In this document: positions 9,391 to 47,961 of the stretch, piece by piece | How the letters are laid out: every line of letters begins with the position of its first letter | Position numbering within the stretch: the first letter of the stretch is position 1 | Virus record (IMG/VR): IMGVR_UViG_3300045988_158846 | Location: 1-49,604 of that record | Length of the DNA: 49,604 bases | From: a virus | Direction: 5' to 3' (one strand) | The notes under the pieces: generated by a model | The model's input: the letters and a program-made list of their open reading frames with translations, nothing else | Told to the model about the DNA's origin: nothing | Databases searched by the model: none | Position numbers and translations under genes: made by a program

Positions 9391-9423
9391 TTAATATTAT
9401 TCTTTAATCACTCGATATCCATT

Positions 9424-10217: not shown

Positions 10218-10373
10218 TTACTTTTTCTTACGCTCTTTGGTAGGATTATAAGCTCCTTGCTGTTTAGGGTTTTCGCCCCACATAATTTGATAAATAGCTC
10301 TTGTTGCACTATTAGTCGCTCTACGTTTAGCTTTAGAAGCCATACTGCCTAAAATACCACGAGGTTTTCTCAT
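10218..10373 (-). CDS. small basic protein (51 aa, Lys/Arg-rich)
   Basis: own reading (MRKPRGILGSMASKAKRRATNSATRAIYQIMWGENPKQQGAYNPTKERKKK); first gene downstream of leftward promoter 10403..10432. Confidence 0.4.
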   Translation of the reverse strand: MRKPRGILGSMASKAKRRATNSATRAIYQIMWGENPKQQGAYNPTKERKKK

Positions 10374-10402
10374 AAAATTATCTCCTTTAATTTTATATAA
10401 AT

Positions 10403-10432
10403 ATTATATAAAAATTTTCTATAATTGTCAAT
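10403..10432 (-). promoter_or_regulatory. leftward consensus promoter TTGACA-17-TATAAT (divergent partner of 10486..10514)
   Basis: minus strand 'ttgacaattatagaaaatttttatataat' followed by RBS AAAGGAGA and ATG 10373. Confidence 0.6.
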
Positions 10433-10485
10433 TTTACATTTTATATAATTTTTTTACCAAATACCGTAAAAATTTTTGGCCTTGG

Positions 10486-10514
10486 TTGACTTTGCAAATT
10501 TTTTGTGTTATAAT
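10486..10514 (+). promoter_or_regulatory. rightward consensus promoter TTGACT-17-TATAAT heading the structural module; same extended motif as 26934..26962
   Basis: 'ttgactttgcaaattttttgtgttataat'; motif ttgactttg.aaatttttt.tgttataat is shared with the second copy. Confidence 0.6.
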
Positions 10515-10542
10515 TTTTTTAGAAGGATTGGAGGTATTAATC

Positions 10543-11607
10543 TTGATAAAATTAGATTATACTCTTGAAACTCCTGAAGAAAGAAATGAATTAGTAAAAA
10601 AAATCTTAGAAGAAAATCCAAATCCTAATGAAAAGTATTTAGAAATTCTTGCAGATTATCTAATTCTATGTATGGAGAAACAAGAAAAAAAAGAAAAGAA
10701 AATATTAACTGATAATAGATTAATGACAGTTAATAAGCGTGAAACTTCATTTGAAGGTCTTGTTTCCCAGTTAGAGAATGGTGAAGATGGTATATATAAT
10801 TTAATTAATAGTGATAAAAATATGATATTTTAGCCAAAAGTTACAATTACAAAAAAAGATTTAGAAGAAATTCCGAGCTTAAAACAATTAAAAGACGCTA
10901 TTACAACTTGGGAAGCAAAAATGAAAGTAGTGAGTGGTAAAGATGCTTTCACTATAAAAAAAGCCTTAATAGAAATGCGTAAAGACCAATATGTTATTAA
11001 AAATGCTTATCGGAAGCCAATAGTACCAGTAAAACTTACACGGTCCAAATATAAAATTAAGTTAGATGAAGATGTAAAAATATTTGATGATGATGGATAT
11101 CCAATTCCAGAAGGCGTCTCATTGATGAACCCTGAAATTTGCTCTTGCATTTTATGCAATTATTCTCGGTTAAAAGAAGACAGTTGGGACCGTTTTGAAG
11201 ATGATACTTGGTATCTCATCTATGATTTTGAAAATATTTGTGATGAGGCTTTGGCTGAATATCCTATGTTAATGCGTATTGTAGAATGTAAAATTGATGG
11301 ATTACAAAATATAGAAATTCAAAAAATTTTACAAGAAGAATTTAATATTACTCATAGTTTAGAATATATATCAAGTTTATTCCGCAATAAAATACCAAAG
11401 CTTATTGCCGATAAAGCTGTTGATAAATATTTAGAGTGGTATTATACAACTCAAGAAAAAGGCAAATATAAAAAATGTAGTCGATGTGGGCAAATCAAAT
11501 TAGCTCACAATAAATATTTTTCCTATAACAAAACAAGTAAAGATGGATTTTATAGTATATGTAAAAAATGCCGAAATAGTTCTCGCAAAGAAAAAATGAA
11601 ATCCTAA
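10543..11607 (+). CDS. hypothetical protein with C-terminal zinc-ribbon (CSRCG...CKKC), ~354 aa, TTG start, one in-frame TAG at 10831
   Basis: ORF-track ORFs 10486..10833 and 10921..11607 are in the same frame and joined by a single TAG; RBS GGAGG 8 nt before TTG. Confidence 0.45.
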
Positions 11608-11625
11608 AGAAAGGAGAAATATTGA

Positions 11626-12840
11626 TTGTCCAGCGAAGGTAAACAATATTATTGTGAAAAATGTAATAAAACTATGGATGGAACTTAGTTTTATACATCT
11701 AATAATTTAGATAAATATCCTAATGATGGTAAATTACCAAAATGCAAGAAATGTATAACAATGCATGTGGATAATTGGAATCCGGATACTTATTTATGGA
11801 TATTGCAAGAATGTGATGTTCCTTACATTCCTGAATAGTGGAATTAGTTAATGGGTAAATTTGCGAAAGATAGAGCGAAAGTCACTGGAATGACAATATT
11901 GGGTCGCTATCTCTCTGCAATGAAATTAAATCAATGGAAAGATTATAGATGGAAAGATAGTCAATTCTTGCAAGATTTACAAAACAAAAAAATAGAAGAA
12001 ACAATGAAGCAATAGGGGTATGATATTCAAGATATTACTACTGCTATTCAACGAGCTTCATTCTCTTTGCCGTCAGAAGAATTAAAAGAGCCGCCTCCTC
12101 CCACCCCTCCTCCCTTAGATTTTGGGAATTCTGGGGAAGATTATTTTAAAGATAAATTAGATTTTGATGTTCCTGACTTAGGTGCAGAGCTGACAGACGA
12201 AGATAAACGATATCTTTATTTAAAATGGGGAAAAGGCTATAGTCCCGATGAATGGGTACGCCTAGAGCAATTATTCAATGAAATGATGCAATCTTATGAT
12301 ATTCAATCGGCAGGTCATATTGATACATTAAAACTGGCCTGTAAGACATCACTAAAATCTAATTAGCTATTGGATATAGGTGATGTAGATGGCGCACAAA
12401 AGATGATTAAAATGTATGATTCCTTAATGAAATCGGGCAAATTTACTGCTGCTTAGAATAAAGAAGAATCTGGTGATTTCGTTGATTCTGTTGGTGAATT
12501 AATAGAAATGTGTGAGAAACAAGGATATATCGAAAGATATTATATTGATACTCCAAATGATAAAGTAGATTTTACAATTAAAGATATGTAGAAATATACT
12601 CGTACTTTAATTGAGCGAGAAACTAATCTTGGCAATATGATTGATTAGGCATTAAAACAAAACGCTAAAGAAGATAAAGAAGCCAAAGAAAACGTCGAAG
12701 ATACAATTGTTGATGATGTTGATATGTCTATTGAAGATATTGAAAAAACTTTGGAAGATAAAGATATTGAAGACTTTGGCGAATTTTTAGATAACGAGAC
12801 AGAGTTAGATATAGATGCTTTCTCTGACAGAGAAAATTAA
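11626..12840 (+). CDS. hypothetical protein with N-terminal CxxC...CxxC zinc-ribbon and acidic C-terminal half (~404 aa), 11 in-frame TAG codons; possible small terminase / packaging partner
   Basis: continuous frame from TTG 11626 (RBS AAAGGAG) to TAA 12838, containing ORF-track ORF 12067..12366; stop overlaps the terminase start. Confidence 0.45.
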
Positions 12841-14591
12841 TGGCATTACAAGACTTGCTTGACCTATCTACTAGTAGAAAAAAGATAGGTCTTTCTGAAG
12901 AACGTATTAATGCTGTAATTCCAATCATCCGTAAATATACTGCCTTTTGGCGTGAATATCCAGATTTATTTGTAGATTTTTTAGTGCGAGGAACGCGCAC
13001 AGAACCAAAAGAAGGAGAGTTTAAATTCTTTTTCTATTAGCGCGTTTTCTTACGCTGTGTTATGCGTTATCAATACGTTTATGCAGTTTTCCCTCGTGCT
13101 TATTCTAAATCATTCTTGTCAGTTATGGCATTGATGGTCAGATGTATTCTTTATCCTGGAGTCCATTTATTTGTTACTTCTGGTGGTAAGGAACAGGGTG
13201 CGAGCATCTTACACGATAAAGTTAATGAAATTTGTGATTTAATTCCCAGTTTTAAACGTGAAATTGATTGGGGTCGTGGCAAGAGCCAAGAGAGCAAGGA
13301 TAAAGTTCGCTATGTATTTAAAAATGGTTCTGTCCTTGATAACTTAGCAGCAAGAGAAAGCACCCGTGGCCAGCGTCGTCATGGTGGTTTGATGGAAGAA
13401 TGTGTAGGTATTGATGATTAGATTTTGCGTGAAGTCATTATACCAGTTATGGCAATTCCTCGTAGAGCTAAAGATGGTACAACCCATGAAGAAGAAGCAG
13501 TTAATAAATCTCAGATTTATATTACTACTGCTGGTTATAAAAATACATATCCTTATGATAGATTGATCGGCCTATTAGTTCGTATGATTACGCAGCCTGA
13601 TAGATGTATGGTATTAGGTGGTACGTGGCGAACTCCTGTCGCTGTTGGATTACAATAGAAAACATTTATTACTGACCAAAAGAATGAAGGAACTTATAAT
13701 GAAGCTTCTTTTGAACGTGAATATGAATCAATTTGGTCTGGTACTGTTGAAGATGCTTTCTTTAATGCCGAAATATTTAATAGAAATAGAATATTGAATT
13801 AGCCTGAGTATGAAGCTTCTGGCCGTTCAAGCAAGTTATCTTATTATATATTAAGTGTTGATGTAGGCCGTAGAGTATGTGATACTGTTATTTGCGTATT
13901 TAAAGTAACACCGCAACCACATGGTGAACCGATTAAAAGCTTAGTTAATATTTATACTATGAATGATACTCATTTTGAGGATTAGGCTATTAAACTTAAA
14001 AAATTATATTATAAATATAAAGCTCGTAGAATTGTAATAGATGCTAATGGACTTGGTGTTGGTTTAATTGATTTTATGGTTAAGCCATAGATTAATCCTG
14101 AAACTTCTGAAATAATTCCTGATTTTGGAGTTTATGGTGGAACTTAGGATGATGCGATTTAGGAATATAAAAAGTATAAAACTAATAGTACAGAATTAGA
14201 TGTTTTATATCTAATGAAAGCTAATGCACCAATTAATACTGAAGCTCATAGCATTACTTAGTCAGTACTAAATTCTGGCAAAATTAAATTTTTAATAGAT
14301 GAACGAATGGCTAAATAGAAATTATTAACTACTAAAGTTGGTTAGAATATGACCACAGAAGCGCGGTCTGATTATTTAAGACCATTTAGTTTAACTACTT
14401 CATTACGTGAAGAGATTATGAATTTGCGTGAAGAAAATGAAGGTTTAAATATTATTTTAAAACAAGCTAATAAAAGTATTAAAAAAGATAAATTTTCTGC
14501 ATTAGAATATGGATTATATTATATAAAAAAAATAGAAGAAGATAAAAAGAAGAAAAAATTCCGGGCTGCTGATTGGATGTTTATGAATTAA
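12840..14591 (+). CDS. terL: terminase large subunit, T4 gp17-like (583 aa), 12 in-frame TAG codons
   Basis: ATPase motifs in T4 gp17 order: Y-[TAG]-R adenine-binding position, Walker A (RAYSKS), ILHDKVNEICDLIP (cf. gp17 [13 protein letters not shown]), Walker B/catalytic (GGLMEEC, cf. IYIEDC), coupling motif (IYITTAGY, cf. IIITTTPNG), nuclease-domain Asp cluster (ILSVDVGRR); frames of ORF-track pieces 12840, 13062, 13425 and 14349 join through TAGs. Confidence 0.85.
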
Positions 14592-14600
14592 GCCGGGCAA

Positions 14601-14644
14601 CTCTTATTATTCTTTTAAATTAATTTTTAAAAGAATAATAAGAG
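14601..14644 (+). terminator. 17-bp perfect palindrome (ctcttattattctttta/taaaagaataataagag) after terL; probable terminator
   Basis: seen directly; followed by AATTTATTTG. Confidence 0.5.
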
Positions 14645-14679
14645 GAATTTATTTGTAGATAAGAAAGGAGACTTAATAT

Positions 14680-15036
14680 ATGGATGCCAGTCGTGCGGAA
14701 ATTAAGATTAGAGAAATCTTAGAGGAAGCCGGCCTGAATTTTAAAATGGAGTATATATTTCCAGATTTAAAAACACATAATGGTCGTCCTTTACGTTTTG
14801 ATTTTGTTATATTTGATGATGATAATAATATTGATTTTTTAATTGAATATCAAGGTAAATAGCATTATGAAGCCAGTAATAAGTTTGGCGGAAAACGTGG
14901 TTTATATCAATAGCAATATAACGATAATCAAAAACGTAGATTCTGTGCTTTACATGATTTACATTTAATAGAAATTCCTTATACAGAAGAAAATTTAATT
15001 TCTTACGATTATATAATGCGAAAGGCTGGATATTAA
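14680..15036 (+). CDS. small PD-(D/E)XK-type nuclease-like protein (DUF559/Vsr-like), 118 aa, 2 in-frame TAGs
   Basis: motif FDFVIFDDD...IDFLIEYQGK[TAG]HY resembles the D...E.K core of Vsr/DUF559 endonucleases; lies between terL and portal where homing endonucleases are common. Confidence 0.4.
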
Positions 15037-15053
15037 TTGAAAGAAGGTGAAGT

Positions 15054-16742
15054 ATGGAATTAGAAAAAGAAGAATTAACCAGAAATGAATAGATACATAA
15101 AAAAGGTTTCGATATAACCGGCGGAACACGAGAGTATTCTGCGGTTGGGCCTACTGATTATAAAAAAATTAAAGTAGGAGTAAAAACACTTGATGATGCT
15201 GTTTTAAACCTTGGTTCATTTAGATGGGATACATATGGGCGTCGTAACGAAAAATATAGCCGTGAACGCATTTATACTAAACCAATGGTTATGGATGCTT
15301 TAATTCGTAATGATGTTTAGGAGTTACGCCGAATATCGCGTTTCTTTTTTAGAGTAAGTGGTATTTATCAAAGAGTATGTAATTATTTTGCAAATATGTA
15401 TCGCTATGACTGGGCTATTGCTATTTAGTCAAATAATACCGATGGAACTACAGTCAAGGATATTAATGAAACTAAAGCAGTAAAAGATTTCTGGCGAATT
15501 TTAAATTATTTAGATAATTCTTATATTAAGAAAATTTGTGGCGATATGGCTCTTGAAGTTATTAAATGCGGAGCTTATTATGCTTATATTGTTCCATCAA
15601 GTACTGGTCTAATTTTACAGTAGCTTCCTATTGATTATTGCCGTTCAAGATATTCTGTAGGTAATTTACCTGCTATTGAATTTGATATGAGATATTTTGA
15701 TACTTTTATAGATACTAATTACCGTAATAGAGTATTAAAATTATTCCCTGACGAATTTACAGTAGGTTATCGTCTTTATAGAGCTGGTAAGCTTTTACCA
15801 GATGTGGCTGGTGATAATAGTGGTAGTTGGTATTTATTAGACCCACAAAGCACAATTAAGTTTGCTTTAAATGGTACTAATGATATTCCATTATTTGTAA
15901 ATGCTATTCCAGCAATTTTGGATTTAGATGCCGCACAAGATTTAGACCGCCGCAAGTAGATGCAAAAATTATTAAAGATTTTAGTTTAGAAATTACCGCT
16001 TGATAAAAATGGTGATTTGATTTTTGATATTGATGAAGCTCGTGATATTCATAATAATGCTGTTGAAATGTTGCGTAGAGCTGTAGGTGTTGATGTATTA
16101 ACTACTTTTGCCGATGTAGATGCTATTGATACTTCTGATAAAAATACTTCTGCTACTACAGATGAATTAGAGCGTGTCGAACGAACTGTATATAATGCAT
16201 TTGGCGTTTCGCGCAATTTGTTTAATACAGATGGCAATATTGCATTGGAAAAGTCCATCTTAGATGATGAATCTACTATGCGCAATTTAATTTTGCAATT
16301 CAACATATTTTTTGATAGAATATTATCAGTCCTGAATGTTCAGAAAAAATATAATTATAAGTTCTATATGTTAGAAACTACACAATATAATTATAAAGAT
16401 TTATCTAAGATGTATAAAGAGCAGACTTAGATTGGTTTCTCTAAAATGCTACCTTAGATTGCTCTTGGACAATCATAGAGTTTTATTCTTAATACAGCTC
16501 ATTTTGAAAATGAAGTTCTACATTTAAGTGAAGTTATGATACCGCCTCTTATGAGTTCTACATTAAATGGTGAAGATATTTTGGGTAAAAAAGATTAGAA
16601 TAGTTCTAACACTTCTCAAAATAAAACAAGTGGAAATACCACTACTGTAAAAACAGAAACAAAAGAGAGTGGTCGGCCAGAAAAAGCTAATGATGAAAAG
16701 AGTGAAAAAACAATCGCTAATCGTCAAGCGGCTGGTAAATAA
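15054..16742 (+). CDS. putative portal protein (562 aa), ~11 in-frame TAG codons
   Basis: position immediately downstream of terL, size, acidic/Ser-Thr-rich C-terminal tail; ORF-track pieces 15687..15959 and 16017..16430 are in one frame. Confidence 0.5.
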
Positions 16743-16754
16743 GGAGGATTTATA

Positions 16755-18317
16755 GTGAGACATACAAGTGTTAAGTTAGATACTCCTGTTGAGTTTATTA
16801 ATATCACTAAAATCAATCCTTTAATTTCTAAATGTTAGATTAAAGTTTGTTATGTTGGTGATAAACCAAATCGCAATAGAAGTGTTATAACAAAAGAAGT
16901 TGCTAAAGATTTAGCGCAAAGTTTACCAGGTAGTCCTATCGTTGGTTATTTTAATGAAGCCAATGGTGATTATGAAGAACATAATCGTGTTATTGATATT
17001 TCTAATGGTAAATTTGATATTAAAGATACTACTGTTCCTTATGGTTTTGTAGACTTGGGAGCTAAAGTATGGTTTTAGAAATTTTTAGATGATGGAAAAA
17101 ACGAGCATGAATATTTAATGACTGAAGGCTATATCTGGACAGACATCTATCCAGAAAGTAAACGTATTATTGAAAAAGGTAATAATCAATCTATGGAATT
17201 AGATGATGAAAAAATTAATGCGTATTGGTCGAAAGATAAGAATGGAATGCCCGAATTTTTTATTATAAATGAAGCAATAATTAAGAAACTTTGTATTCTT
17301 GGAGAAGATTGTGAACCTTGCTTCGAAGGAGCTAATATTACTGCACCTACGATGCATTTCTCATTTAGTGATAAATTTAATGAGCAATTATTCTCTATGA
17401 TGAAAGATTTAAAAGAATTATTAGAAGGTAAAGGAGGAACAAAAGTGTTCACAAGATACAATGTGGAGATTGGTGATTCCATTTGGACTTCTCTTTATTC
17501 TTACATTAAGGGCTTCGGTGCTGGTAATGCAGTGATTGAAGAAGTTTGCGAAGACAATGGTAATTTATTTGCTGTTGTCAAGGAAGATGATAAGTTCGTT
17601 CGTTTAGATTTTTCTATGGAGAATGACACTTTCACTCCTGGTGAAATTTCTGGATTAACTGATTATTCTGTTTCTGAAAACCCTCAATTCGATCCTGAAA
17701 AAGTTGCAGAATTTGCGAAAAAAAAGGACGAAAAAGATAAAGACAATAAAGAGAATAATGATAATAATAAGAAAGATTCTTCTGAAGAACAGCCAAAAGA
17801 TGGCGAAAAGAAGGATGGTTCTGAAAATAAACCTGCTGATACTTCTGATGAAGAAGGAAAGCCAACTAAAGATGATGAAGAAGAAAAAAAGAAAAAGAAA
17901 GCTAAGTATTCTTTAGAAGATGTAGTTGAATATGGTTTATTAAAAGATGAGTATGCCGCTCTTGAAACTAAATATAATGAATTAGTTGAAAAGCAGACAC
18001 AGCTCGAACAAGAACTTGCTTCTCTTACTTAGTTTAAAACTGAGGCAGAAAGAGAAAAGAAGCAAGAAATGATTAATAGTTTCTATATGTTATCTGATGA
18101 TGATAAGAAAGATGTTGTTGCTAATATTGATACTTATTCATTAGATGATATTGAAGCAAAGCTTTCTATTATCTGTGTTCGCAATAAGGTCAATTTCGAT
18201 ACTAATGAAAAGAAAGAAAATGACCCACTTACATATAATATTAATAATGATGTAAATGAAGATAGCATTCCTGCTTGGATTAAGGCAGTATAGGATGTTG
18301 CGAAAACTATGGAATAA
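16755..18317 (+). CDS. putative scaffolding protein (possibly protease-scaffold fusion), 520 aa, GTG start, 4 in-frame TAGs
   Basis: Lys/Glu/Asp-rich low-complexity and coiled-coil C-terminal half (EEKKKKKAKYSLEDVVEYGLLKDEYAALETKYNELVEKQTQLEQELASL) between portal and capsid genes; RBS AAGGAGG. Confidence 0.45.
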
Positions 18318-18341
18318 TAAATTTTTAAGGAGGAAAACCTA

Positions 18342-19118
18342 ATGCTTTTAAAAGATATGCTTAAAGACCTAAGCGGCGTATCTGCTGTTAAGGGCGGCTA
18401 CGTTGAATATGGCTATGGTCAGGTTGAGCCTAATCATTTAAGTGCTCAGCGCACTGGTCAGATTTATGCTCAATTACCTGCTAACAGAAATATCCAGCTT
18501 CTTGAAAATGGCCAGTTTGTTAAGTATGACTATGCTGCTGGTGAGCTTGGTGAAGTTGATTTCACTGGTAAGGGCGAATGGATGTTAGTTTATAATGAAA
18601 TCAAACTTTATCGTGAGGAACAAGCTGATTGTGAATTTGCTATGCGCAAGGATGATTATCAGGCTCGTTTCTATAGCCCATACGATGGCAAGCAGGAAAT
18701 TGGTACACGCCAGGCTCGTTATCTAAATGGTAAGGATGCCGAAGGTAATACTTCTATTACTATTACAGACAGCCAAGGTGTACAACATACTTATGAATAT
18801 GACGATGTTACTGCTGGTCCTGATATTCGTGAACTCTTCTATGAAGAAGATCCTTTACACTTTGATGGTCCTTATCAGCCACGTAAAATGCCTGCGGGCA
18901 CAAACATGGTTCCTCGTGTTTTCAAGACCAATGTTGGTGATATTTTTACGACTAATACTATTGCTGAAGCTACTCTTGTAGTTGGCGATATTTTAAGTCC
19001 TCGTGCTGCTGACGGTATGCTTTCTAAGACCGGTGATGGCTCTATCCAGTGGTAGGTTGTCAAGGTTTATGAAATGCCTGACCATCAGAAGGGCGTTAAG
19101 ATTATGCGAATCGCGTAA
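18342..19118 (+). CDS. head-associated hypothetical protein (258 aa), one in-frame TAG
   Basis: ORF track 18342..19055 extended through TAG 19053 to TAA 19116; RBS AAGGAGG. Confidence 0.45.
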
Positions 19119-19135
19119 GAAAGGAGAGAAGAAAA

Positions 19136-20272
19136 ATGTTAGATAGAAAAAATCTTGTTCAATTAATGAAGACTGTCGCTAAGGCTGATCCTTCTGCTCC
19201 TACTGCTTACAGCTTTAATGGCGAAAGCCTTTCTTATGATGCTCTTAATGAAACTCTCCGCAGAGAATTAAATGAACTAGCTGGAACTTATTCTCTATAT
19301 CGTGATAATAAGAACCTTATTTTCTCAATGATTGAAGAAACCATTGATGAAGTTCTTCCTAAGAAAGTTGAAGAGCAATATAATCAGTTTGCTGAAGTTA
19401 AGACGTTTAAACAGGGTGACAAGCCTATTTTCCGTAGAAAGTTCAGCAACAATACTCGTGCAAAGCAATTCATCACTCGTGTCGGCCTAGCTGGTATCTA
19501 TGAAGTATTTAAGCTTGGTAAGACTGAAGAAAGCTTTGAAGTCCGTACAAGCGCTATCGGCGGAGCTGCTCAAATTGGATTTGAGGAATTCCTTGATGGC
19601 CGTGTCGATTTTGGTGTTGTTACTCAGATCGTCATGGAAGGTATGGATGAACTTATCTATAAAGAGATTGCTGGTGCTTTAAAGGCTTCTGTTAACCAGT
19701 TACCTCCTGCTAACCGTTTAGTTGCTAATGGTTTTGATGAACCCGGTTTTGATAAGTTACTTATGATTGCTTCTGCTTATGGTACTCCTACTATTTATTG
19801 CACTTATGAATTTGCTGTTCGTATGATTCCGAAGGATGCTTGGCGTTATACTGAAGCTATGAAAAATGAGCTTTGGAATACTGGTCGTCTTGCTTCCTAT
19901 AAGGGCTATAAAGTTGTTATTCTTGAGCAGGGCTTTGAAGATGCTACTAATGAAAAGAAAGTCATTGACCCAGGTTATGCTTGGATTATTCCTACTGGTG
20001 CTGATAGTAAGCCTGTAAAGGTTGCTATGGAAGGCAATACCATTGTTGATGAATATACCAATTATGATCGTAGTCGTGAAATTCAGGTTTATAAGAAAGT
20101 TGGCGTTATTGCTATGTTAGCTAATAACATCTGCTGCTATTGTGATACTGAACTTCTTGGTGATATGAAGACATGGCATCTTGATGGCGTAACTGGTAAG
20201 GTCCGTGACTATGCTGGTCAGATTACTGGTTCTCATGATACTATTGATGGCGGTAATGAAGATAAGCCGTAA
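19136..20272 (+). CDS. putative major capsid protein (378 aa), no TAG codons
   Basis: size and position after portal/scaffold; followed by strong terminator; RBS GAAAGGAGAG; TAG-free despite recoded neighbours. Confidence 0.5.
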   Translation: MLDRKNLVQLMKTVAKADPSAPTAYSFNGESLSYDALNETLRRELNELAGTYSLYRDNKNLIFSMIEETIDEVLPKKVEEQYNQFAEVKTFKQGDKPIFRRKFSNNTRAKQFITRVGLAGIYEVFKLGKTEESFEVRTSAIGGAAQIGFEEFLDGRVDFGVVTQIVMEGMDELIYKEIAGALKASVNQLPPANRLVANGFDEPGFDKLLMIASAYGTPTIYCTYEFAVRMIPKDAWRYTEAMKNELWNTGRLASYKGYKVVILEQGFEDATNEKKVIDPGYAWIIPTGADSKPVKVAMEGNTIVDEYTNYDRSREIQVYKKVGVIAMLANNICCYCDTELLGDMKTWHLDGVTGKVRDYAGQITGSHDTIDGGNEDKP

Positions 20273-20317
20273 TTGATATTAACTAAAAATTAATATATAA
20301 TATTTTTAGGGGAGAAT

Positions 20318-20350
20318 GGGGAAATCCCCTTCTCCCCTATTTTGTTTTAT
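20318..20350 (+). terminator. rho-independent terminator (aggggagaa...ttctcccct hairpin plus U-tract)
   Basis: perfect 9-bp stem enclosing a second GC stem, followed by ATTTTGTTTT. Confidence 0.65.
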
Positions 20351-20373
20351 GAGTAAAAGGAGAATAAAAAAAA

Positions 20374-20940
20374 ATGAGTAAAAAAATTTTAATAGTTACT
20401 AATAGAAGTGCTGGAATGGTTGTTTATACTATTCCTGAAGAAGGTATCCGCAGAGAATTTACACCTGGAGAAACTAAAAAAATTCCTTTTGAGGAATTAG
20501 AGAAACTTGCCTATCTTAGCGGAGGCCGCACTTTAATGGAAAACTTCTTAAAGATTGTGGATACTGAAACTACAGAAGAATTAGGTATTCATACAGAACC
20601 TGAATATTATTTAGACGACGCTGGAGTTATTAAGCTTCTTACCGAAGGGACTCTTGATGAATTCCTTGACTGCCTTGATTTTGCTCCTATTGGAGTTATT
20701 GATATGATTAAGAGTTATGCTGTATCTCTTCCTATGAGTGATTACAATAAGCGTAAGGCTCTTAAGGATAAAACTGGATTTGACCTTGATCGAGCATTAG
20801 CCAATAAGGAAGCTGAAGCTGCAGAGGATGAACAAATTACTCCAAAAGCTCCTGAACGTAGAGTAAAGACCGAAACTAAGTCTACAACGCCTCCTGGTCG
20901 TAGAACTACTCCTCGTTATAACGTTGTAAAAGAAGGTTAA
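20374..20940 (+). CDS. hypothetical virion protein (188 aa), no TAG
   Basis: ORF track; RBS AAAAGGAGAA; Pro/Thr-rich basic C-terminus. Confidence 0.5.
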   Translation: MSKKILIVTNRSAGMVVYTIPEEGIRREFTPGETKKIPFEELEKLAYLSGGRTLMENFLKIVDTETTEELGIHTEPEYYLDDAGVIKLLTEGTLDEFLDCLDFAPIGVIDMIKSYAVSLPMSDYNKRKALKDKTGFDLDRALANKEAEAAEDEQITPKAPERRVKTETKSTTPPGRRTTPRYNVVKEG

Positions 20941-20962
20941 TTATAAATAAGGAGGGTTTTAT

Positions 20963-21574
20963 ATGACATATTTTTATAAGATTTATGAACGCTTTTTAGG
21001 CAAAGTAACAGATGATATGTATTTAGAACTTACTCCTCATGATACATTTTTAGATTTACGTCAATTGCTTGTTGATAGCATCCCTGGATTTGAATTTCCG
21101 CGTAAAAAATTAGATTATGTTTTAGTTGATGAAGATGCTCCTGATTTTATAAAAGGGGAAATTGATGGCGGAAATATTGATATACCATTAGGCGGAGATT
21201 TATCTGAAGAAGTAGCTGGCAGTAACATTGATATAGATAATGCTTTTTAGGAGATATTTTCTGAAGAAAATACCTCCTATTTTAATGCCGATTTGGATGA
21301 TGAAGAAATTAATATCTTGGCTTTGATTATGGTTGAAGCTTGGGTAGAGCGTCAATTGGCCTCTATTGAAGTAACAAGAATGAAATATTCTGGTACAGAT
21401 TTTAAATTTACTTCATAGGCAAATCATATGTAGAAATTGTTATCATTGAGAACAGAAGTAAGACGTTAGGCCTTTCATATGCAGAGATTATATAAGCGTC
21501 GTAAAACTGATGATAATGGATATATTAAATCTAACTGGTCTGTTCTAAGGGAGGTAAGTGCCCTTGATGACTAA
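20963..21574 (+). CDS. putative head-tail connector/adaptor protein (203 aa), 4 in-frame TAGs
   Basis: ORF track 20963..21250 extended through TAGs to TAA 21572; position between capsid and tail genes. Confidence 0.4.
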
Positions 21575-21860
21575 ATATAATTTTAATATAGATAATGATT
21601 TAATTAATACTAATATTAATAGATTAACTAATTAGATATGGAAATTAATTCCTATGCGTGAAAATGAAGAAGATTGGTTATCTTAGTTAAATACTGTAAT
21701 TATTGAATTAACTGGTCTTGGGGAAATTTTTAATGATAGTTAGTATTTAATTCTTTTAAGTAAATTAGAAGGACTAAAAAATATTGAAATTGAATTTCCT
21801 ATTTATAGAAAGACAGTGTTTGAAGCTATTACTTTATTAAGGGGGCTTCACATTGAATAA
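21567..21860 (+). CDS. hypothetical protein (97 aa), 3 in-frame TAGs
   Basis: ATG overlapping the previous stop; continuous frame to TAA 21858. Confidence 0.35.
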
Positions 21861-22848
21861 AAATGAATATTTAGATGCAATGTATAACCGTATTCCAAAA
21901 GCCAATATGCTTACAAGATATTTATATGGCGATGGAGTAACAGGACAGCAAGAACGAATGATAAGAGATAAACGTAAAACATTAAGTAGAGCTTTACTTT
22001 ATTCTTATCAAGCTGCCTTGGTAAAAAAATTATATGATGATAAAGATACTATTGAACGTCGTGCATTAATTAATCCTGATAAAATAAAATAGGATTACGA
22101 TGAAAAAATTATTTCAATTGGTTTTGAAAGTAATTTTAAAACTGGGGATATTTTTTAGTGGTTAGGTACAAATACTTATTGGTTAATTTATTTACAGGAT
22201 TTAACTGAATTAGCTTATTTTCGTGGTAATATAAGACGTTGTTCTTATGAAATTGCCTGGGAAGATGAAAATAAAAATTATCATAAAACTTATATTGCTT
22301 TGCGTGGTCCTGTTGAAACTAAAATTAATTATATTCAAAAGCATGAAATTAGTATAGATACCCCTAATCATTCTTTAAATATATTATTACCTTATAATGA
22401 TGATAATGTAAAATTATGTTAGCGTTATAATAAATTTTATTTATAGAATGACCCTAATAAAACATGTTGGCGTATTGAAGCTACTGATTTGTATTCTACT
22501 CCTGGAATAATTGAAATTAATGCTGTCGAGTATTATTCTAATGAAACCGCTGATGATATTGATAATGGTATTGTCAATGGTTTAATATAGCCGGTTCAAG
22601 ATCCTAATTCGGGTAAGGAGAATGGCATTATAGGAGATACTTTTATTAAGCCTAAAGTAGTATATGAATATAAATATGATGGAATTAACTCTGGCGAATG
22701 GACTTGGGATAAAAAATTACCATTAACAGTTAAAGTAAATGAAGAAACAAATACTTTAAAATTACGATGGGAAACTACATATTGTGGCTAGTTTGATTTA
22801 TTCTACGGGCCAGAATGTAAAACCATTGTAGTTGAATCTTTATTTTAA
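21853..22848 (+). CDS. hypothetical structural protein (331 aa), TTG start, ~6 in-frame TAGs
   Basis: ORF track 21853..22092 extended in frame to TAA 22846; RBS AAGGGGG. Confidence 0.4.
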
Positions 22849-22869
22849 AGATGAAGGAGAAATCGGAGA

Positions 22870-23460
22870 ATGAAAATTGATAATGTAAAAAATCCAGAGT
22901 CAGCATTTTTAGCCCAAGAAAAAGATATGAGAATTATAGTTGATCGTATGGCCGCGAATCAACGTTTGCGTAAATTACTTTATTATACTACTCCTGATGC
23001 GTTAAAAAAACCAGAAGTAAGTGATTAGAATTTCGCAAAAATGTTTGGCAAGAATATAAGGAATTTACCAAAATTATATATAGATAAAGATGTTTTAAAT
23101 TATATCGTTATTAGTTTTGATAATTTTACTCCTAATGGAGATAATCCTGAATTTAGAGATAATACTATTGAATTTGATATTATTTGTCATTATAATTAGT
23201 GGCAATTAGCTGATTCTTTTTAGTTAAGACCTTATAGAATTGCTGCTGAACTTGATAGTATGTTAGATAAAAAACATTTAACTGGAATTGGGCAACTTAA
23301 TTTCGTCGGAGCATAGCAAATTATATTAACTGATGAATTTGCTGGACTTTGTTTATTATATGATACAATACACGGAGGAGAAGATAAAAAATTTATGCCA
23401 AATCCTGCTGATGAACAAATGTTTATCGAGGATTATTTTAAAATGCCTAAGATGAATTAA
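22870..23460 (+). CDS. hypothetical protein, possible tail completion/terminator (196 aa), 4 in-frame TAGs
   Basis: RBS AAGGAGAAATCGGAGA; continuous frame to TAA 23458. Confidence 0.35.
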
Positions 23461-24194
23461 TGGATTATAAACTTAGTTTAATGTGCGGGACAGATTTACC
23501 TGTTCCAGAAATTCCATTAACTCTCCATTAGCCTAAGATAAAGGAAATAGCATTAATTGGCGAAAAAGAATTTTTTACTGGTGCTTAGTGTCTTTGTATT
23601 AATAAAAATAGTATAACAAATCAGGACAAGAATGATTTGGATACTACTACCAATTTTTAGATATTTATGATGGTAATGCTATAGAAAGATAATAATGAAC
23701 GGCGTAAAGCTGCGCAATAGGTTCTATCATTACTATTCCCAAATTCAAAGTCTACATTTACTCCCAGATCTATTATTATTCAGTATAATGAGAGCGATAT
23801 TTAGATTAATATTGATAATAATAACTTTGAATTATTTTAGTAGGTAGCAAGACAAATTTTTTGTTTTGATACTAATAAAAATGGGCAAGATAATTATAAT
23901 CCTGCTAATAAGAAAGCTCAAGAAATAGCTAATAAATTAATGAAAGGGCGTCAAAGGGTCGCTGAACTTAAAGGGGTTACCGATTCAAGCATTTTGAGCC
24001 AATACGTTTCTACATTGACTATTGGATTAGATTCAATGTCATTAGAAGATTGTATGAATTTAACATTGTATTAGTTATACGATTTAATAGAAAGATTTTC
24101 TCTTTATACTAATTGGGATATTGATGTAAAGAGTAGATTAGCAGGAGCCAAGTCAGATAAAAAACCTGATAATTGGATGAAAAACATTCATTAA
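23460..24194 (+). CDS. hypothetical protein (244 aa), ~10 in-frame TAGs
   Basis: ATG overlaps the previous TAA; continuous frame to TAA 24192. Confidence 0.35.
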
Positions 24195-24273
24195 TTTTGT
24201 ATAAATCGCTTTACTAATTTTTGTAGCGAGTTATATAAATAAAATTTAAATTTTATTAAGGAGGAAATAACCT

Positions 24274-25437
24274 ATGAAATTTGGTGTTCGTGAGATATGC
24301 GATGTCGTATTAAAAGCTCGTGCTCCTATGAAGGTTGGTAATAAAGTTTTCTATGCGAACGAACCAGTTCTTTATTTCGATACATTAAAGACTTCTAGCC
24401 TTGAAGGTGCTTCTACGACCGTATATGCACAAGGCGGACGCGGCAATGCTCGTTTAGTAGCTTGGGACGGCGACCGTACTTTAACATTCACTATGGAAGA
24501 TGCTCTTATTTCTGCAGAAGGATTTATGATTCTTTCTGGTGCTGGTCTAATTGAGGCTTCTTCTAATAATACTATTAAACAGCATGTTACTGAAAAATCT
24601 ACTGCTGTTGAATTAGACCAGGATAAGAAGAGTGTTAATATTTATACTACTTCTCTTCCTTATGAGAATGTTAATGAAAAAGGCGAATATGTTGATGATG
24701 CTGATCATTATATTTATGCTATGTTAGTAAAGAATGATGAGCCTACAACTGAACCTTACTTACCTCGTATTGAGCGTTATGAAAATGACCATAAACCTGT
24801 TATGTACCATTTAGTTGATGGTGTTTATACTAAGTATGAAAACACTGCTGCTGGTGATGTTGCTCGAAAAGCTGGTACTGTTATTTATTATTGCTTACAG
24901 ATTAAAGCAATTACTAAAACTATTTCAGCTCCTACTACTGAGAATCCAGATGCTACTAAAGAAGTAACTATTTATGATTTAGCTGATACGACTGAAGCTT
25001 ATTTAGGTTCTGATGGTAAAGAGCATTTTGTTGATGATCATCAGATTGCTAACTTTGAAAATGGCACAGTTCTTCTTGATTATTATATTGAGAAGGTAAG
25101 TAAGGTAAAGCAGATTGAGATTACTGCTGAATCCTTTGGTGGTAACTTCTATCTTGAAGCTTCTACCTTATTCCGTACTCAGGATGGTGTTGACCTTCCT
25201 GCTGAATTCATAATTCCTAACTGCAAGATTCAGTCTAACTTTACTTTCAGTATGGCTGCGACTGGTGATCCTTCAACTTTCACTTTCACTCTTGATGCAT
25301 TCCCTGGAACTACTCGTTTTAATCCTGCTAAGAAAGTTCTTGCAGCTATCCAGATCATTGAAGATGCAGTCGATTCTTCTCTATATCGTACTCGTACAAT
25401 TCATGATCCCACTCATGATAGCTATTTTGATATTTAA
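24274..25437 (+). CDS. putative major tail protein (tube or sheath), 387 aa, no TAG codons
   Basis: ORF track; RBS AAGGAGGAAATAACCT; tandem TAATAA stop and downstream strong terminator; position upstream of chaperone and tape measure genes. Confidence 0.5.
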   Translation: MKFGVREICDVVLKARAPMKVGNKVFYANEPVLYFDTLKTSSLEGASTTVYAQGGRGNARLVAWDGDRTLTFTMEDALISAEGFMILSGAGLIEASSNNTIKQHVTEKSTAVELDQDKKSVNIYTTSLPYENVNEKGEYVDDADHYIYAMLVKNDEPTTEPYLPRIERYENDHKPVMYHLVDGVYTKYENTAAGDVARKAGTVIYYCLQIKAITKTISAPTTENPDATKEVTIYDLADTTEAYLGSDGKEHFVDDHQIANFENGTVLLDYYIEKVSKVKQIEITAESFGGNFYLEASTLFRTQDGVDLPAEFIIPNCKIQSNFTFSMAATGDPSTFTFTLDAFPGTTRFNPAKKVLAAIQIIEDAVDSSLYRTRTIHDPTHDSYFDI

Positions 25438-25438
25438 T

Positions 25439-25606
25439 AATGGTTATCAATTCGACAGCTCCAAAACCTATTAAAAAAAATCAAGAGCAGAAGAAAGTTA
25501 TAATTGAAGAATCTAAGAAAAATGTAAAAAAGATTATAAAATCTAAAGATGCTCCTCTTACCGAAGATGAGCTAATTGAAAAAATCATTAAAGGAGAGGG
25601 TTAATC
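25439..25606 (+). CDS. small Lys-rich protein (55 aa)
   Basis: own reading (MVINSTAPKPIKKNQEQKKVIIEESKKNVKKIIKSKDAPLTEDELIEKIIKGEG); its 3' end forms the stem of terminator 25591..25623. Confidence 0.3.
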
Positions 25607-25623
25607 CCTCTCCTTTTTTTTAT
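25591..25623 (+). terminator. rho-independent terminator (aaggagaggg ttaa tccctctcctt plus 9-nt U-tract)
   Basis: seen directly. Confidence 0.65.
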
Positions 25624-25645
25624 TATGTGAAAAAGGAGATATAAT

Positions 25646-26926
25646 ATGGCAAAATTAACAAATGTTTAGAAAAATTAGTTAATTTATTATAAGCCAAAAG
25701 GCCGACAATATAAAAATGAAGAAATTACTCCTAAATACTTGAGTAATTTATTAAGTTCTTATAGAGAATTAATGCGTCCTAATAAAACTTTGGAGAAAGA
25801 AACTAATGATGCTAAATTATTGGAACAAGTATTAAATGGAATTAAATAGTACCAAAATAATTAGATAGATTCCAAAAATTATTCATTAGAAGATATAGTG
25901 GCAGATGCTGCATTAAATAATTTATTATTAAATTTGAAAGAAGTCAATCCACATCTATTTGAAGGAGCCGGATTAATTACCAGTAGTACAAATAAAGCAG
26001 CTTAGGGTGCGATGTTAGAAGATTTTATGAATGAATTTATTACTACAGTTAATGCTGCTTTTCAAGGTATTAATTTTGATTCTGGAGATATGATTTATAG
26101 AACTGGTGGGATGCTTGATGCTATAAATAATAAAAATTTAATATAGGATATTGGTAATGATGTAATGTAGTAGACAATTGATAAATTTAATAAAGTTATA
26201 AATACTGCTGCTTTTAAAAGTGGAAAAATTATAGATAAAGGCGGCGATAGTACTACCAGTAGACAAAAATATATTAGAAAAGGTACTTTTGTGCCGGTCG
26301 ATATTACTACAAATTAGATTGACAGTAAAGCTATTAAAGTAGATAATGCTGGATTAAACTATGATATAACTATTACAGCACAAGCAACTATGCTAGAAAA
26401 AGTAGTTAGTGCTTTATCTTAGGCTACATTCACCGATAAAAACTATTTAAGTACAAAAGAATTACATTTAGGACATACTAATCCTGTCAGAGTGTTTATG
26501 ACTGTTGCTGATGGAGATAGTTCTTATAAATTATATAGATATGCTCGTATGTTAAATTGTATGGCTAATCATCATGGAACGCATAATTCTCCTGAATTAT
26601 TTTATCGTATTCGTGCTATTTATGAATTAACTGGCGGAAAGCAAAAAGTTGAATAGAGTTATTTAACATCCAGTAATTAGAGTAGGCTGGGTGATTTAAT
26701 TACTGGGGCTGGTCATGCGAAATATTTAGTAGTTAATAATCCATAGGCCGGTGGATTTTTAAAAGTCATTCCCACTGCTGAATTAGTAAAAGATATTGAA
26801 TATAATCTTTATTATAATTAGAAACTTACATCTGGGGAATTTCTTAATTCTACTAAGACTGGTTCTATGTCTATGGAGCAGTCTCTATATAGTGATATTA
26901 GTTTAAAATTTAGTAGAATATTATAA
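25646..26926 (+). CDS. hypothetical tail protein (426 aa), ~14 in-frame TAGs
   Basis: RBS AAAAGGAGAT; continuous frame to TAA 26924. Confidence 0.4.
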
Positions 26927-26933
26927 AAAATTT

Positions 26934-26962
26934 TTGACTTTGGAAATTTTTTTTGTTATAAT
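26934..26962 (+). promoter_or_regulatory. consensus promoter TTGACT-17-TATAAT (second copy of the extended late-promoter motif)
   Basis: 'ttgactttggaaattttttttgttataat', about 75 nt upstream of the chaperone gene. Confidence 0.6.
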
Positions 26963-27038
26963 ATATTTGTAAAAAAATGAAAATTAAAAAATTTATCTAA
27001 ATAATTTTTTAAAATATAATAAAGAAGGAGGCGAGGTA

Positions 27039-27566
27039 ATGGCAAAATTGGCATTTTCCAAGCTTACACTTCAAAAAAACTCTTAGGTAAAAGAATGGAG
27101 TTTTAATGAGCAATCTATTGAAGTAAAGCAGTATTTGTCTATTAAGGAAAGAATGGATATTGCTTAGTCGGTCATTCAACAAGTCATTGATTTTAATAAT
27201 GAATTTTTGAATGAATTTGCTTTCCATATGTATATGGATTTAGCAATAGTATTTAATTATACAAATTTATCTTTTACTGATAAGCAGAAAGAAGATTTGT
27301 ATAAACTTTATGATTTACTTGTTGGATCAGGACTCATGAAAGAATTAAAGAAACAAGTAAATTGTAATCAAACTGATGATTTAGAAGTCTATACTTATGA
27401 AATGCTTAATGGATATTATAAATATCATAATAGTGTTTATGGGATTATGGATACTATAAATCAGAATTATTCTAATTTAAATTTAGATGTTAATGAGCTA
27501 CAAGATAAGATTTCTAATCCTGAGAGTCTATCTTTAGTAAAAGATATTTTAACCAAGATGGGTTAA
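27039..27566 (+). CDS. putative tail assembly chaperone (175 aa), 2 in-frame TAGs
   Basis: position immediately upstream of the tape measure gene; RBS AAGGAGG; ORF track 27207..27566 extended upstream through TAGs. Confidence 0.4.
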
Positions 27567-27603
27567 AATATTATAATTAATTTCTAATTTAAATAGGAAT
27601 ATT

Positions 27604-27636
27604 AAAAGGCGAGAGGCTTTGTTCCTCTCGCCTTTT
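27604..27636 (+). terminator. rho-independent terminator (aaaaggcgagagg...cctctcgcctttt)
   Basis: 12-bp GC stem followed by CTTT; between chaperone and tape measure genes. Confidence 0.55.
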
Positions 27637-27680
27637 CTTTATATATATAGAAATTTATAATGAGAGAAAGGAGCTATTTT

Positions 27681-36600: not shown

Positions 36601-36953
36601 CTAATGGTCAAGGATTTGGACCGGACAATGGCAGAATTATTAAAGTTCATCCTAAAGAATTAATTCTTAACCAAAAGGATACTTCTAATATACTTCGTGC
36701 AGTTGATATTGTCCGTAATATGAATGACTGGGTTGATAAGCAAGTTTAGTCAATGGTTAATTATGGATAGACTAAATTAGGTAATTTAATTGATAAAGCC
36801 ACTCCTCCTGTTTATGAAACTCAACCAATTAAGCAAGAAGTCACCATCCAAGCTGATTTCCCAGGAGTAACTGATCATTATGAAATTGAAGAAGCATTAT
36901 CTAATCTTAGTAATAATGCTGCTCAATATATAAGTGCTAATAAATCTAAATGA
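27681..36953 (+). CDS. tail tape measure protein, ~3090 aa, roughly 130 in-frame TAG codons, ends TGA
   Basis: single frame (all TAG-free ORF-track pieces 31032, 33162, 35931 share frame 0 with ATG 27681); no in-frame TAA/TGA where read; long alpha-helical/coiled-coil composition typical of TMPs; poly-Gly tract at 34010..34035; RBS AGAAAGGAG. Confidence 0.8.
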
Positions 36954-36978
36954 GGAGGATTAATTTCCTCCTCATTTT
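36948..36978 (+). terminator. rho-independent terminator (aaatgaggagg...cctcctcatttt) overlapping the TMP stop codon
   Basis: seen directly. Confidence 0.55.
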
Positions 36979-36998
36979 GAGGAGAGAAAGGAGTTAAT

Positions 36999-39900: not shown

Positions 39901-40211
39901 AAGTACGATCTTTAACAAATGAAATAGATACTAGCGGTTATGTATCTGGATTATATCAATATGACAATGATGATATTCCTACTAATATTTTACGAGCAGA
40001 TGGATTAGTTAAATTAGGAGGAGATAAATTAACTATTGATATTGATGGTAATTTAACTTTAAATGAAAAAACTCCAAGCAATATTTTAACTATAGCAAGA
40101 TTGTTAAATGAATTAACCTCTAATATAGAGTTTAGATAGGAATTAACTAATAATATAGTTCCTCCACCTGAGAAAACTATTAAAATACGTGATTGGTATA
40201 TTGAAGAATGA
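36999..40211 (+). CDS. large tail protein (~1070 aa; distal tail/baseplate candidate), many in-frame TAGs, ends TGA
   Basis: ORF-track pieces 37884, 38154, 38994, 39417 and 39807 all lie in frame 0 with ATG 36999 (RBS AGAAAGGAG). Confidence 0.6.
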
Positions 40212-40240
40212 TGGATTTTTATCCATCATTCTTTTTTTTT
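40205..40240 (+). terminator. rho-independent terminator (gaatgatggattttt atccatcattc plus T9)
   Basis: seen directly; overlaps stop codon of 36999..40211. Confidence 0.6.
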
Positions 40241-40317
40241 ATTTGGACCAAAATAGTATGTTTACAATATATAATTTTTAAAAATTAATAGAAATAAGAG
40301 TTAAAGGAGGTCAATAA

Positions 40318-43300: not shown

Positions 43301-43737
43301 TAAATGAGTTTTTAGATAAAATAGATGATGACACAAATTCTATTGAAGATTTGTTAATTGAAGGAACTGAATTATTAGAAGAATATCGTCCGCTATCTGG
43401 ATTAGTTTTAAATGACTAGACTGATGCTTGGATGAACGGTTCAAATCAATTGGTAGTTTATAATTTTAATGGTATTGAAAGCCTTGAAATTGAAGCTGAC
43501 GCCAATACAGATATTGTATTTGGTAGAAACAATGAAATTGATAGTAGTACTGGTTCTGTCTCTCCAGCCAATGAGGATAATCATATTCGAGTTGGACCAA
43601 CAAATAAAATAGTATTAAATCCTTTAAAAAGCACAATTAAATCATTAGAGTTTGCTCGTCCTTCTTATGCTATTATTAATTACAAAGCTGTTTCTTCCTT
43701 AGAACTAAAAGGATATATTAATACAAATGAGGAGTAA
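40318..43737 (+). CDS. large tail protein (~1139 aa; tail hub / receptor-binding candidate), many in-frame TAGs
   Basis: ORF-track pieces 40537, 42076, 42898, 43186 and 43432 share frame with ATG 40318 (RBS AAAGGAGG); ends TAA. Confidence 0.6.
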
Positions 43738-43742
43738 ATAAT

Positions 43743-47246: not shown

Positions 47247-47256
47247 GGAGGTAACA

Positions 47257-47958: not shown

Positions 47959-47961
47959 TTA

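Follow-up and report, generated by a model that had tools for sequence, protein, structure and literature searches.

The open reading frame (ORF) at 12840..14591 of a 49,604-nucleotide stretch of viral DNA (IMG/VR record IMGVR_UViG_3300045988_158846, positions 1 to 49,604; the whole of this stretch is referred to as the window) very probably encodes the large terminase subunit TerL, a DNA-packaging ATPase and nuclease, of an uncultured gut phage with a genome of ~189 kb and an SPbeta-type virion module, whose late genes are written in genetic code 15, in which UAG specifies Gln. Eleven TAG codons lie in the frame, and alignment of the predicted protein to other terminases shows the first of these, at 13038-13040, to specify the Gln of the [Y/F]-Q-R adenine-recognition motif, equivalent to Q143 of phage T4 gp17. 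The same comparisons show this predicted motif Gln to be conserved in the family to a degree equal to that of the P-loop Lys. The gene thereby offers an internal proof of its own code, in that a recoded stop falls on a catalytically essential residue and recoded stops occupy both of the sole invariant Gln columns of the family.

The amber codon in the adenine-recognition motif

The peptide around the first TAG reads ...FKFFFY[TAG]RVFLRCVMRYQYVYAVFPRAYSKS, with Y66 at 13035-13037, the TAG at 13038-13040 and R68 at 13041-13043, and with K90 and S91 of the P-loop at +23 and +24 from the TAG. The initial annotation, made from the letters of the window alone, had proposed this ORF, this TAG, the Tyr-TAG-Arg context and the Lys-Ser spacing, and all were found where it had placed them. 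The gp17 segment that it gave for comparison is a 100% match to the deposited T4 gp17 chains (3ezk_A residues 141-211, with Y142, Q143, K166 and T167, and the same spacing of +23 between Q143 and K166); its version of the gp17 Walker B segment, IYIEDC, was wrong, since gp17 reads IYIDEC.

The proposal that the TAG occupies the invariant Gln position was borne out by a profile aligner. An alignment of the window TerL with seven standard-code (code-11) homologues, made with MAFFT (A1), was compared by hhalign with an alignment of T4 gp17 and six divergent T4-like TerLs (A2), and the two were paired at 97.7% probability (E 1.7e-12, 349 columns, 17% identity). TAG67 is set on gp17 Q143, flanked by the pairs Y66 to Y142 and R68 to R144, and further along R86 falls on R162 and K90-S91 on K166-T167. 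The gp17 mutant Q143A has been employed as an inactive motor subunit (PMC8589836), and the adenine-binding motif of the gp17 ATPase structure is covered in reviews (PMC9958956).

Gln is present in all seven of the cultured code-11 TerLs of A1 at residue 67, and likewise in 7/7 at residue 382, where a further window TAG lies that aligns to a Gln of the thermophilic-phage nuclease domain 5tge. These seven standard-code sequences have 42 invariant columns, two of which are Gln; the 11 window TAGs cover both of the invariant-Gln columns and 0/40 of the other invariant columns, and the chance that 11 random positions would include both is ~3e-4. An exhaustive search of the TerL family yielded 1,533 representatives, and in the best 150 of these, from which all column counts were taken, column 67 holds Q in 80 of the 81 covering representatives and column 382 in 117 of 121. 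Some of the Q residues among the representatives may be translated TAGs, and no competing residue was seen. At the codon level, 19 covering relatives of 24-98% identity have TAG (4), CAA (14) or CAG (1) opposite 13038, and at column 382 the codon is TAG, CAA or CAG in 20/20 relatives.

The identity of TAG across the late genes

The late ORFs of the window were translated with X at each TAG and aligned to the virion modules of phages Geobacillus E3 and Enterococcus H1, which gave 106 aligned TAG positions in 131 comparisons. The commonest partner of TAG is Gln, at 24% against a background of 4.4%, a 5.6-fold enrichment, and a likelihood test with substitution frequencies drawn from those same late-gene alignments also returned Gln as the maximum-likelihood identity, the margin being 31.9 ln units over Ser, 39.6 over Glu, 58.8 over Lys and >125 over each of Tyr, Trp and Leu. 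The tabulation of aligned residues that the initial annotation had suggested thus favors Gln throughout the window, as it does at residues 67 and 382, and not the Trp, Leu or Ser that were named as contrary outcomes.

A second comparison asked each Gln codon of the window for its partners in standard-code relatives. Gln stands opposite TAG, CAA and CAG in 42%, 43% and 62% of cases in MT836163, in 23%, 23% and 28% in Enterococcus H1, and in 29%, 12% and 40% in Geobacillus E3; opposite any other window residue it occurs in at most 12% of cases in these three, and in at most 7.3% for MT836163 and Enterococcus H1. On these alignments TAG is quantitatively CAA-like in matching the Gln of relatives. 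Direct comparison of codons, which is unaffected by how databases translated the genes, leads to the same point: in relatives of ~85% amino-acid identity the codons opposite window TAGs are TAG in 25-34 cases, CAA or CAG in 22-28 and other codons in 6-10 (in one relative, L025, TAG 34, CAA 21, CAG 1 and other 6). Because CAA is two mutations away from TAG and is yet found far above all of the single-step neighbors, this distribution is the signature of synonymous exchange, and the aligned relatives show TAG to be interchangeable with CAA and CAG as a predicted Gln codon. The composition agrees in number. The window TerL has 22 codons when TAG, CAA and CAG are added together, and the unrecoded TerL of MT836163 has 22 CAA and CAG; the Gln content of the late proteins is 4.7% with TAG counted and 2.6% without it, the homologues having 4.4%; and 45% of the late-gene Gln codons are TAG.

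Decoding of TAG as another amino acid, of which Glu would be the most plausible and Ser, Lys, Tyr, Trp, Leu and pyrrolysine the others, is accordingly given very little probability. Glu ranks third in the likelihood test, and where the host forms its Gln-tRNA by transamidation the Glu on a CUA tRNA might remain unconverted; at several variable TAG columns the homologues have E, D, K or S; and ARAGORN by default labels the CUA tRNA of phage Phass-1 as 'Pyl'. However, the likelihood margins given above run against Glu, Ser, Lys, Tyr, Trp and Leu, both of the TAG-bearing invariant columns hold Gln alone, and TAG swaps mainly with CAA and not with the single-step codons GAG, AAG, TAT, TGG, TTG or TCG. 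Moreover, Gln opposite a window Glu does not exceed 12%, compared to 23-42% opposite TAG, and gp17 requires the motif Gln, Q143A being inactive (PMC8589836).

Read-through of the late genes

The late packaging and virion genes are open only when TAG is read through. Read-through takes the ORFs with 100 codons or more from a combined 25.6 kb to 57.9 kb, and yields 23 consecutive plus strand ORFs from ~10.3 kb to the end of the window. Within the terminase gene TAG is the sole interruption of the 583-codon frame, which starts at an ATG (12840) overlapping the TAA of the upstream ORF, as TAATG, and which ends in TAA at 14589-14591. More than 100 independent assemblies hold this same full-length TerL gene, and a public protein (P0001) is the window TerL apart from having Q at the 11 TAGs.

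That the TAGs are true stops, with a terminase that is decayed or fragmented or that owes its interruptions to a sequencing or assembly artefact, is hardly credible. Code 11 does break the TerL ORF into pieces, the GenBank record of Phass-1 splits its TerL into three coding sequences, and PHROGs families of 'unknown function' match parts of TerL. Against this, 583 codons are open with only TAG interruptions and a TAA end, the catalytic motifs 3' of the first TAG are all intact and conserved, the gene is full length in the >100 assemblies just noted, the identical pattern extends across the 23 consecutive late ORFs, and TAG positions are kept or are exchanged with CAA or CAG. The true-stop reading is refuted by these conservation data.

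In the early genes, on the opposite strand, TAG occurs in frame only twice in 1,881 codons. It might be supposed that the host itself reads TAG as Gln and that the phage mirrors the code of its host, and the relatives do sit in bins of metagenome-assembled genomes (MAGs), one of which is labelled Mollicutes; this explanation nevertheless has a negligible probability. The avoidance of in-frame TAG by the early genes is as expected under standard-code translation, the close relatives MT836163 and L060 are unrecoded, and standard-code hosts have been predicted for code-15 phages (Borges et al., bioRxiv 10.1101/2021.08.26.457843). The MAG labels conflict among themselves (Mollicutes, Treponema, Bacteroidales, Clostridium and others), and since they are mutually inconsistent they reflect mis-binning and not hosts; as evidence for the host they were therefore rejected. 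The close relatives in question (L058-L065, contigs of GTDB genomes, including some of 164-176 kb) are in MAGs labelled Mollicutes, Acutalibacteraceae, Bacteroidales, Treponema, Clostridium and Muribaculaceae, the likeliest explanation being that phage contigs were wrongly binned with bacterial genomes.

One late ORF figures in the question of decoding efficiency. It occupies 27606-36953 as a single frame of 3,116 codons with 110 in-frame TAGs, and is tape-measure-like, parts of it aligning with an Enterococcus H1 tail protein and the Geobacillus E3 tape-measure protein. Full-length chains of this ORF would amount to 33% at a read-through of 99% per codon, 0.35% at 95% and ~1e-5 at 90%, and with 110 in-frame UAGs in one late ORF the per-codon read-through must therefore be near-complete. 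A system with no dedicated decoder, in which a near-cognate host tRNA reads UAG inefficiently and UAG acts as a leaky attenuator, is for this reason very improbable, although the ~70 kb scanned in this genome yielded no tRNA, suppressor tRNAs were detected in just 40% of TAG-recoded genomes (Borges et al., bioRxiv 10.1101/2021.08.26.457843), and two recoded genomes of the phAss-1 family group are without a detectable tRNA-Sup-CTA (PMC10607447). The 273 TAGs of the late block and the 45% share of TAG among late-gene Gln codons given above also stand against it; and the ~70 kb scanned are part of a genome of ~189 kb, the tRNA array of Phass-1 being ~70-90 kb from its TerL.

TAG is not evenly distributed among the late genes. 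The genes at 19136-20272, 20374-20940 and 24274-25437 have zero TAG, and together with 18342-19118 they form a set of four of which one has a single TAG. Two of the TAG-poor genes are at the YonB and YomU tail-tube positions by synteny, and the gene at the tube position matches phrog_2729, a virion structural protein; on what YonB and YomU do, the literature searched gave nothing usable. The TAG-poor late genes favor CAG for Gln, compared to TAG and CAA with almost no CAG in the other late genes, and this pattern is kept in three diverged relatives. This suggests selection against TAG in those virion proteins that are most abundant, the TAG-poor genes being, as we infer, those of the major capsid and tube proteins. 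Recoding is also patchy within the TerL clade: relatives of 61-68% TerL identity have 0 (MT836163, i.e. L024, and L060) or 3 (L061) TerL TAGs, and other relatives of 64-98% identity have 6-12 in frame.

The putative decoder of UAG

Were UAG read as a stop, the product of the terminase gene would be a 66-residue peptide without the P-loop. Because this truncation under the standard code precedes the P-loop, an active terminase would need efficient UAG-to-Gln decoding. The decoder would most likely be a phage-encoded tRNA with the anticodon CUA, located outside of the window and charged via the host Gln pathway; it may act after early-gene expression, so that the code switch would gate late-protein synthesis, as in the model of Borges et al.

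Phass-1 (the phAss-1 of Babkin et al. 2023, PMC10607447) is the nearest complete code-15 relative, and it has a tRNA array, including a CUA tRNA, at 70-90 kb from TerL, which makes a remote location of the decoder plausible for the window phage also. A scan of IMG/VR for the anticodon arm of the Phass-1 tRNA found 21 contigs, none of this phage group. The Phass-1 suppressor tRNA (L034 19745-19821, anticodon CTA) has U1-A72 and G73, and the tRNA-Gln(CTG) and tRNA-Gln(TTG) of that phage have A1-U72 and G73; the nearest matches of the suppressor are Asn and His tRNAs, at ~73%, and it is no closer to tRNA-Gln than to other tRNAs.

Several observations weigh against the assignment of UAG to Gln through such a tRNA. 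ARAGORN found no tRNA in the window, in the 10 kb on either side of it (together ~70 kb of the ~189 kb genome) or in the TerL loci of 15 relatives, and Rfam at its gathering threshold found no RNA family. The CUA tRNA of Phass-1 is not obviously derived from that phage's own tRNA-Gln genes, and shares with them a weak 1-72 pair and G73. Of the 11 TerL TAG columns nine are variable and are uninformative alone. An AlphaFold2 model of TerL, built from 18 sequences of 84-99% identity, has a mean predicted local distance difference test score (pLDDT) of 34 and is unusable for the presumed contact of Q67 with adenine. Finally, the Gln identity of TAG rests on homology and codon exchange and not on a peptide. 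One form of the code-15 interpretation would take the missing tRNA at face value: that this lineage is without a recognisable suppressor tRNA and reads its >270 late UAGs as Gln near-completely by another route is unlikely, though less so than any of the rival explanations set out above. If it were true, candidates for that route would include a tRNA of non-canonical form, a host tRNA that is hijacked or edited, or the loss of release factor 1 activity.

The terminase gene and its family

The terminase motifs all lie 3' of the first TAG or include it, and their coordinates are collected with those of the neighboring features in Table 1.

Table 1. Positions, in window coordinates, of the terminase gene, its predicted motifs and amber codons, and adjacent late-region features.
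Feature	Position	Strand	Remarks
TerL gene, large terminase subunit	12840..14591	+	583 sense codons, 11 in-frame TAGs, TAA stop
Adenine-recognition motif, Y66-[TAG67]-R68	13035..13043	+	first TAG at 13038; hhalign onto gp17 Y142-Q143-R144
Walker A / P-loop, P85-R-A-Y-S-K90-S91	13092..13112	+	K90-S91 aligned to gp17 K166-T167
Walker B and catalytic glutamate, L184-M-E186-E187	13389..13400	+	aligned to gp17 Y-I-D255-E256
ATPase coupling motif (motif III), I226-Y-I-T-T-A-G232	13515..13535	+	aligned to gp17 IIITTTP (hhalign)
RNase H-like nuclease domain	13860..14489	+	invariant acidic residues in A1
Second TAG on an invariant Gln column, residue 382, H-F-E-D-[TAG]-A, nuclease domain	13983..13985	+	Q in 7/7 standard-code homologues
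Other nine TerL TAGs: 13419, 13656, 13800, 14088, 14145, 14160, 14259, 14316, 14343	13419..14345	+	variable columns
Terminator-like hairpin, perfect 19-bp AT-rich inverted repeat, 6-nt loop	14601-14644		between TerL and the 118-residue ORF
Conserved 118-residue ORF, 2 TAGs	14680-15036		between TerL and the portal gene
Late (packaging and virion) gene block	10294..49604	+	open only with TAG read through; 273 in-frame TAGs in 12,721 codons

Walker A, Walker B with its catalytic Glu, and motif III are all present in the window TerL, in this order. In the P-loop the window PRAYSKS aligns with gp17 SRQLGKT, a Ser and not a Gly preceding the Lys, and in the Walker B motif the window M-E-E-C is opposite gp17 I-D-E-C. 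Among the best 150 representatives R86 is invariant (85/85), as are K90 (86/86) and E187 (105/105), and position 186 is E or D. The pairing of IYITTAG with gp17 IIITTTP, which the initial annotation had made, is also that of hhalign. In the nuclease domain the residues invariant in A1 are D341 (13860-13862), D401 (14040-14042) and D550 (14487-14489); hhalign pairs D341 with gp17 D401 and D401 with gp17 E458, and D550, which is invariant in the clade, is outside of the hhalign range and is not mapped to D542, which with D401 and E458 makes up the catalytic acidic triad of the gp17 nuclease. At the nine variable TAG columns the seven homologues of A1 have E, D, K, S or Q, and in the wider set of relatives the codon is TAG, CAA or CAG or else encodes a charged or polar residue (e.g. 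E, D, K or S).

A search of PHROGs assigns the protein to phrog_2, terminase large subunit (E 6e-17). Three families of 'unknown function', phrog_15503, phrog_24618 and phrog_26582, match TerL more strongly than does phrog_2, and each covers one part of it, N-terminal, C-terminal or middle-to-C-terminal; their appearance is that of families assembled from pieces of terminases, the pieces coming either from recoded phages annotated in code 11 or from genes that are split. Among annotated phages a translated search found 117 records that span at least 80% of the TerL query at 22-46% identity. The annotated TerLs of cultured Firmicute phages are 24-46% identical over at least 89% of the length of the window TerL, e.g. 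Geobacillus E3 at 46%, Enterococcus H1 and EF1 at 44% and SPbeta YonF at 24%, and further homologues are found in Brevibacillus Sundance, in Bacillus Tsamsa-like phages and in the Lactococcus 949 group; the named near-full-length homologues are all from cultured phages and are all in the standard code. The TerL of Enterococcus phage EF1 (MF001358 76748-79712) aligns as three separate segments, among which an HNH homing endonuclease is annotated, and a mobile element appears to interrupt this terminase gene.

Pfam gave no family for TerL at E values up to 1, and a Pfam scan of TerL with 17 neighboring proteins gave nothing useful, the copy of Pfam used being one without the newer SPbeta families. 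Among PDB chains neither phmmer nor a family profile matched gp17, the best matches being the G20c nuclease (E 0.11) and T7 gp19 (E 0.34). The initial description of the protein as clearly T4 gp17-like was overstated, there being no Pfam or direct gp17 PDB match. By sequence comparison the window TerL is a member of the SPbeta YonF / Geobacillus E3 / Enterococcus EF1-type clade: the homology to the YonF clade is full length and the module around the gene is of SPbeta type, and it is therefore a YonF-type TerL.

Neighborhood, genome and relatives

In metagenomic relatives YonG is upstream of TerL, and the portal, YonD, YonB, YomW, YomV and YomU are downstream; the Pfam order in these relatives is YonG_N, YonD_N, YonB, YomW, YomV_2nd and YomU_Tube, and the window ORFs are collinear with it. 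The window portal matches phrog_2739. The hairpin that follows TerL begins 10 nt past its stop and has a T-rich tail after it. The 118-residue ORF downstream has a weak match to DUF2726, below the Pfam threshold; every close relative has it at the corresponding place, and a gene of Enterococcus H1 shares 49% identity with it.

Where the genes switch from the minus to the plus strand, the minus strand has a perfect TTGACA-17-TATAAT (10403-10431), together with a promoter-like site on the plus strand (10486-10514) that is an 11/12 match with an extended TG, and a bidirectional terminator-like hairpin is found at 9368-9391. The count of promoter-like sites around the strand switch is not above the shuffled expectation.

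The left end of the window lies at ~178 kb and the right end at ~39 kb of ENA ERZ28573464 scaffold_126 (188,689 bp; L027, L031), and since the window thus spans the ends of this scaffold the genome is circular or circularly permuted, at ~189 kb. To the right of the window are small genes, followed by a minus strand block with genes for dUTPase, NrdG, NrdD and guanylate kinase and a DNA polymerase III alpha-like gene. A conserved TerL 32-mer matches an IMG/VR contig of 188,474 bp; a 35-mer from the right end of the window has no IMG/VR match. Megablast of 25 kb of the window against the phage collection gave no nucleotide-level match.

Comparison with known systems

The reading of TAG as Gln in this phage is supported by strong evidence, but genetic code 15 as a phenomenon is already known in phages. 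Since gut phages with late genes recoded from TAG to Gln have been described in print, as has the use of terminase alignments to infer this, the finding leaves prior knowledge unchanged. Its practical meaning is that the window, and the whole of this ~189 kb phage group, need code 15 translation. Standard-code translation shatters the genes for terminase, portal, tape measure and tail into 'hypothetical' fragments, as in the GenBank record of Phass-1 (L003 / OQ749652 23189-24934), where the coding sequences are given in the standard code and TerL becomes three fragments named 'hypothetical protein'; the same fragmentation is probably behind the three PHROGs families of 'unknown function'. NCBI taxonomy holds a 'Caudoviricetes code 15 clade', in which Phass-1 is filed.

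The closest published parallel is phAss-1, a human-gut siphovirus-type phage, with the proposed Phassvirus group (Babkin et al. 2023, PMC10607447), which like the window has TAG-interrupted TerL, portal, tape-measure and tail genes. TAG-to-Gln recoding was found to restore the TerL of phAss-1, with recoded positions falling on conserved Gln residues of other TerLs (PMC10607447). The phAss-1 tape-measure protein is 3,149 residues long (PMC10607447), compared to the 3,116 codons of the window ORF, and its TerL is homologous to that of the window at 40% identity and has CAG at the motif position. The two phages differ in genome size, ~189 kb for the window phage and 136 kb for phAss-1, and in that phAss-1 has an array of 33-36 tRNAs with CUA suppressors (PMC10607447), whereas no tRNA was found in ~70 kb of the window phage.

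Among code-15 phages in general (crAss-like, Lak and others) TAG is, as here, enriched in late and structural genes, and recoding is patchy within clades. Borges et al. aligned terminases with the stops as X and found that TAG fits Gln best, and they report that suppressor tRNAs are often, though not always, detectable in code-15 phages (bioRxiv 10.1101/2021.08.26.457843); for crAss-like phages, metaproteomics has confirmed that TAG is decoded as Gln (Peters et al. 2022, PMC9523058). The window phage belongs to another lineage than the crAss-like and Lak code-15 phages, with an SPbeta-type virion module and Firmicute-infecting relatives, and the assignment of TAG to Gln is made here from sequence alone.

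T4 gp17 shares with the window TerL the Y-Q-R tripeptide and its spacing of +23 to the Walker A Lys, but it is a remote homologue (17% identity in the hhalign alignment), linked by profile-profile comparison only, and it differs in having Gly where the window P-loop has Ser before the Lys, and D-E where the window Walker B has E-E. The YonF-type TerLs of SPbeta and its relatives are far nearer, with full-length homology at 24-46% identity and the same set of motifs. The cultured phages of this type use the standard code and have CAA at the motif Gln, whereas in the window phage, as in many of its relatives from metagenomes, this codon is TAG.

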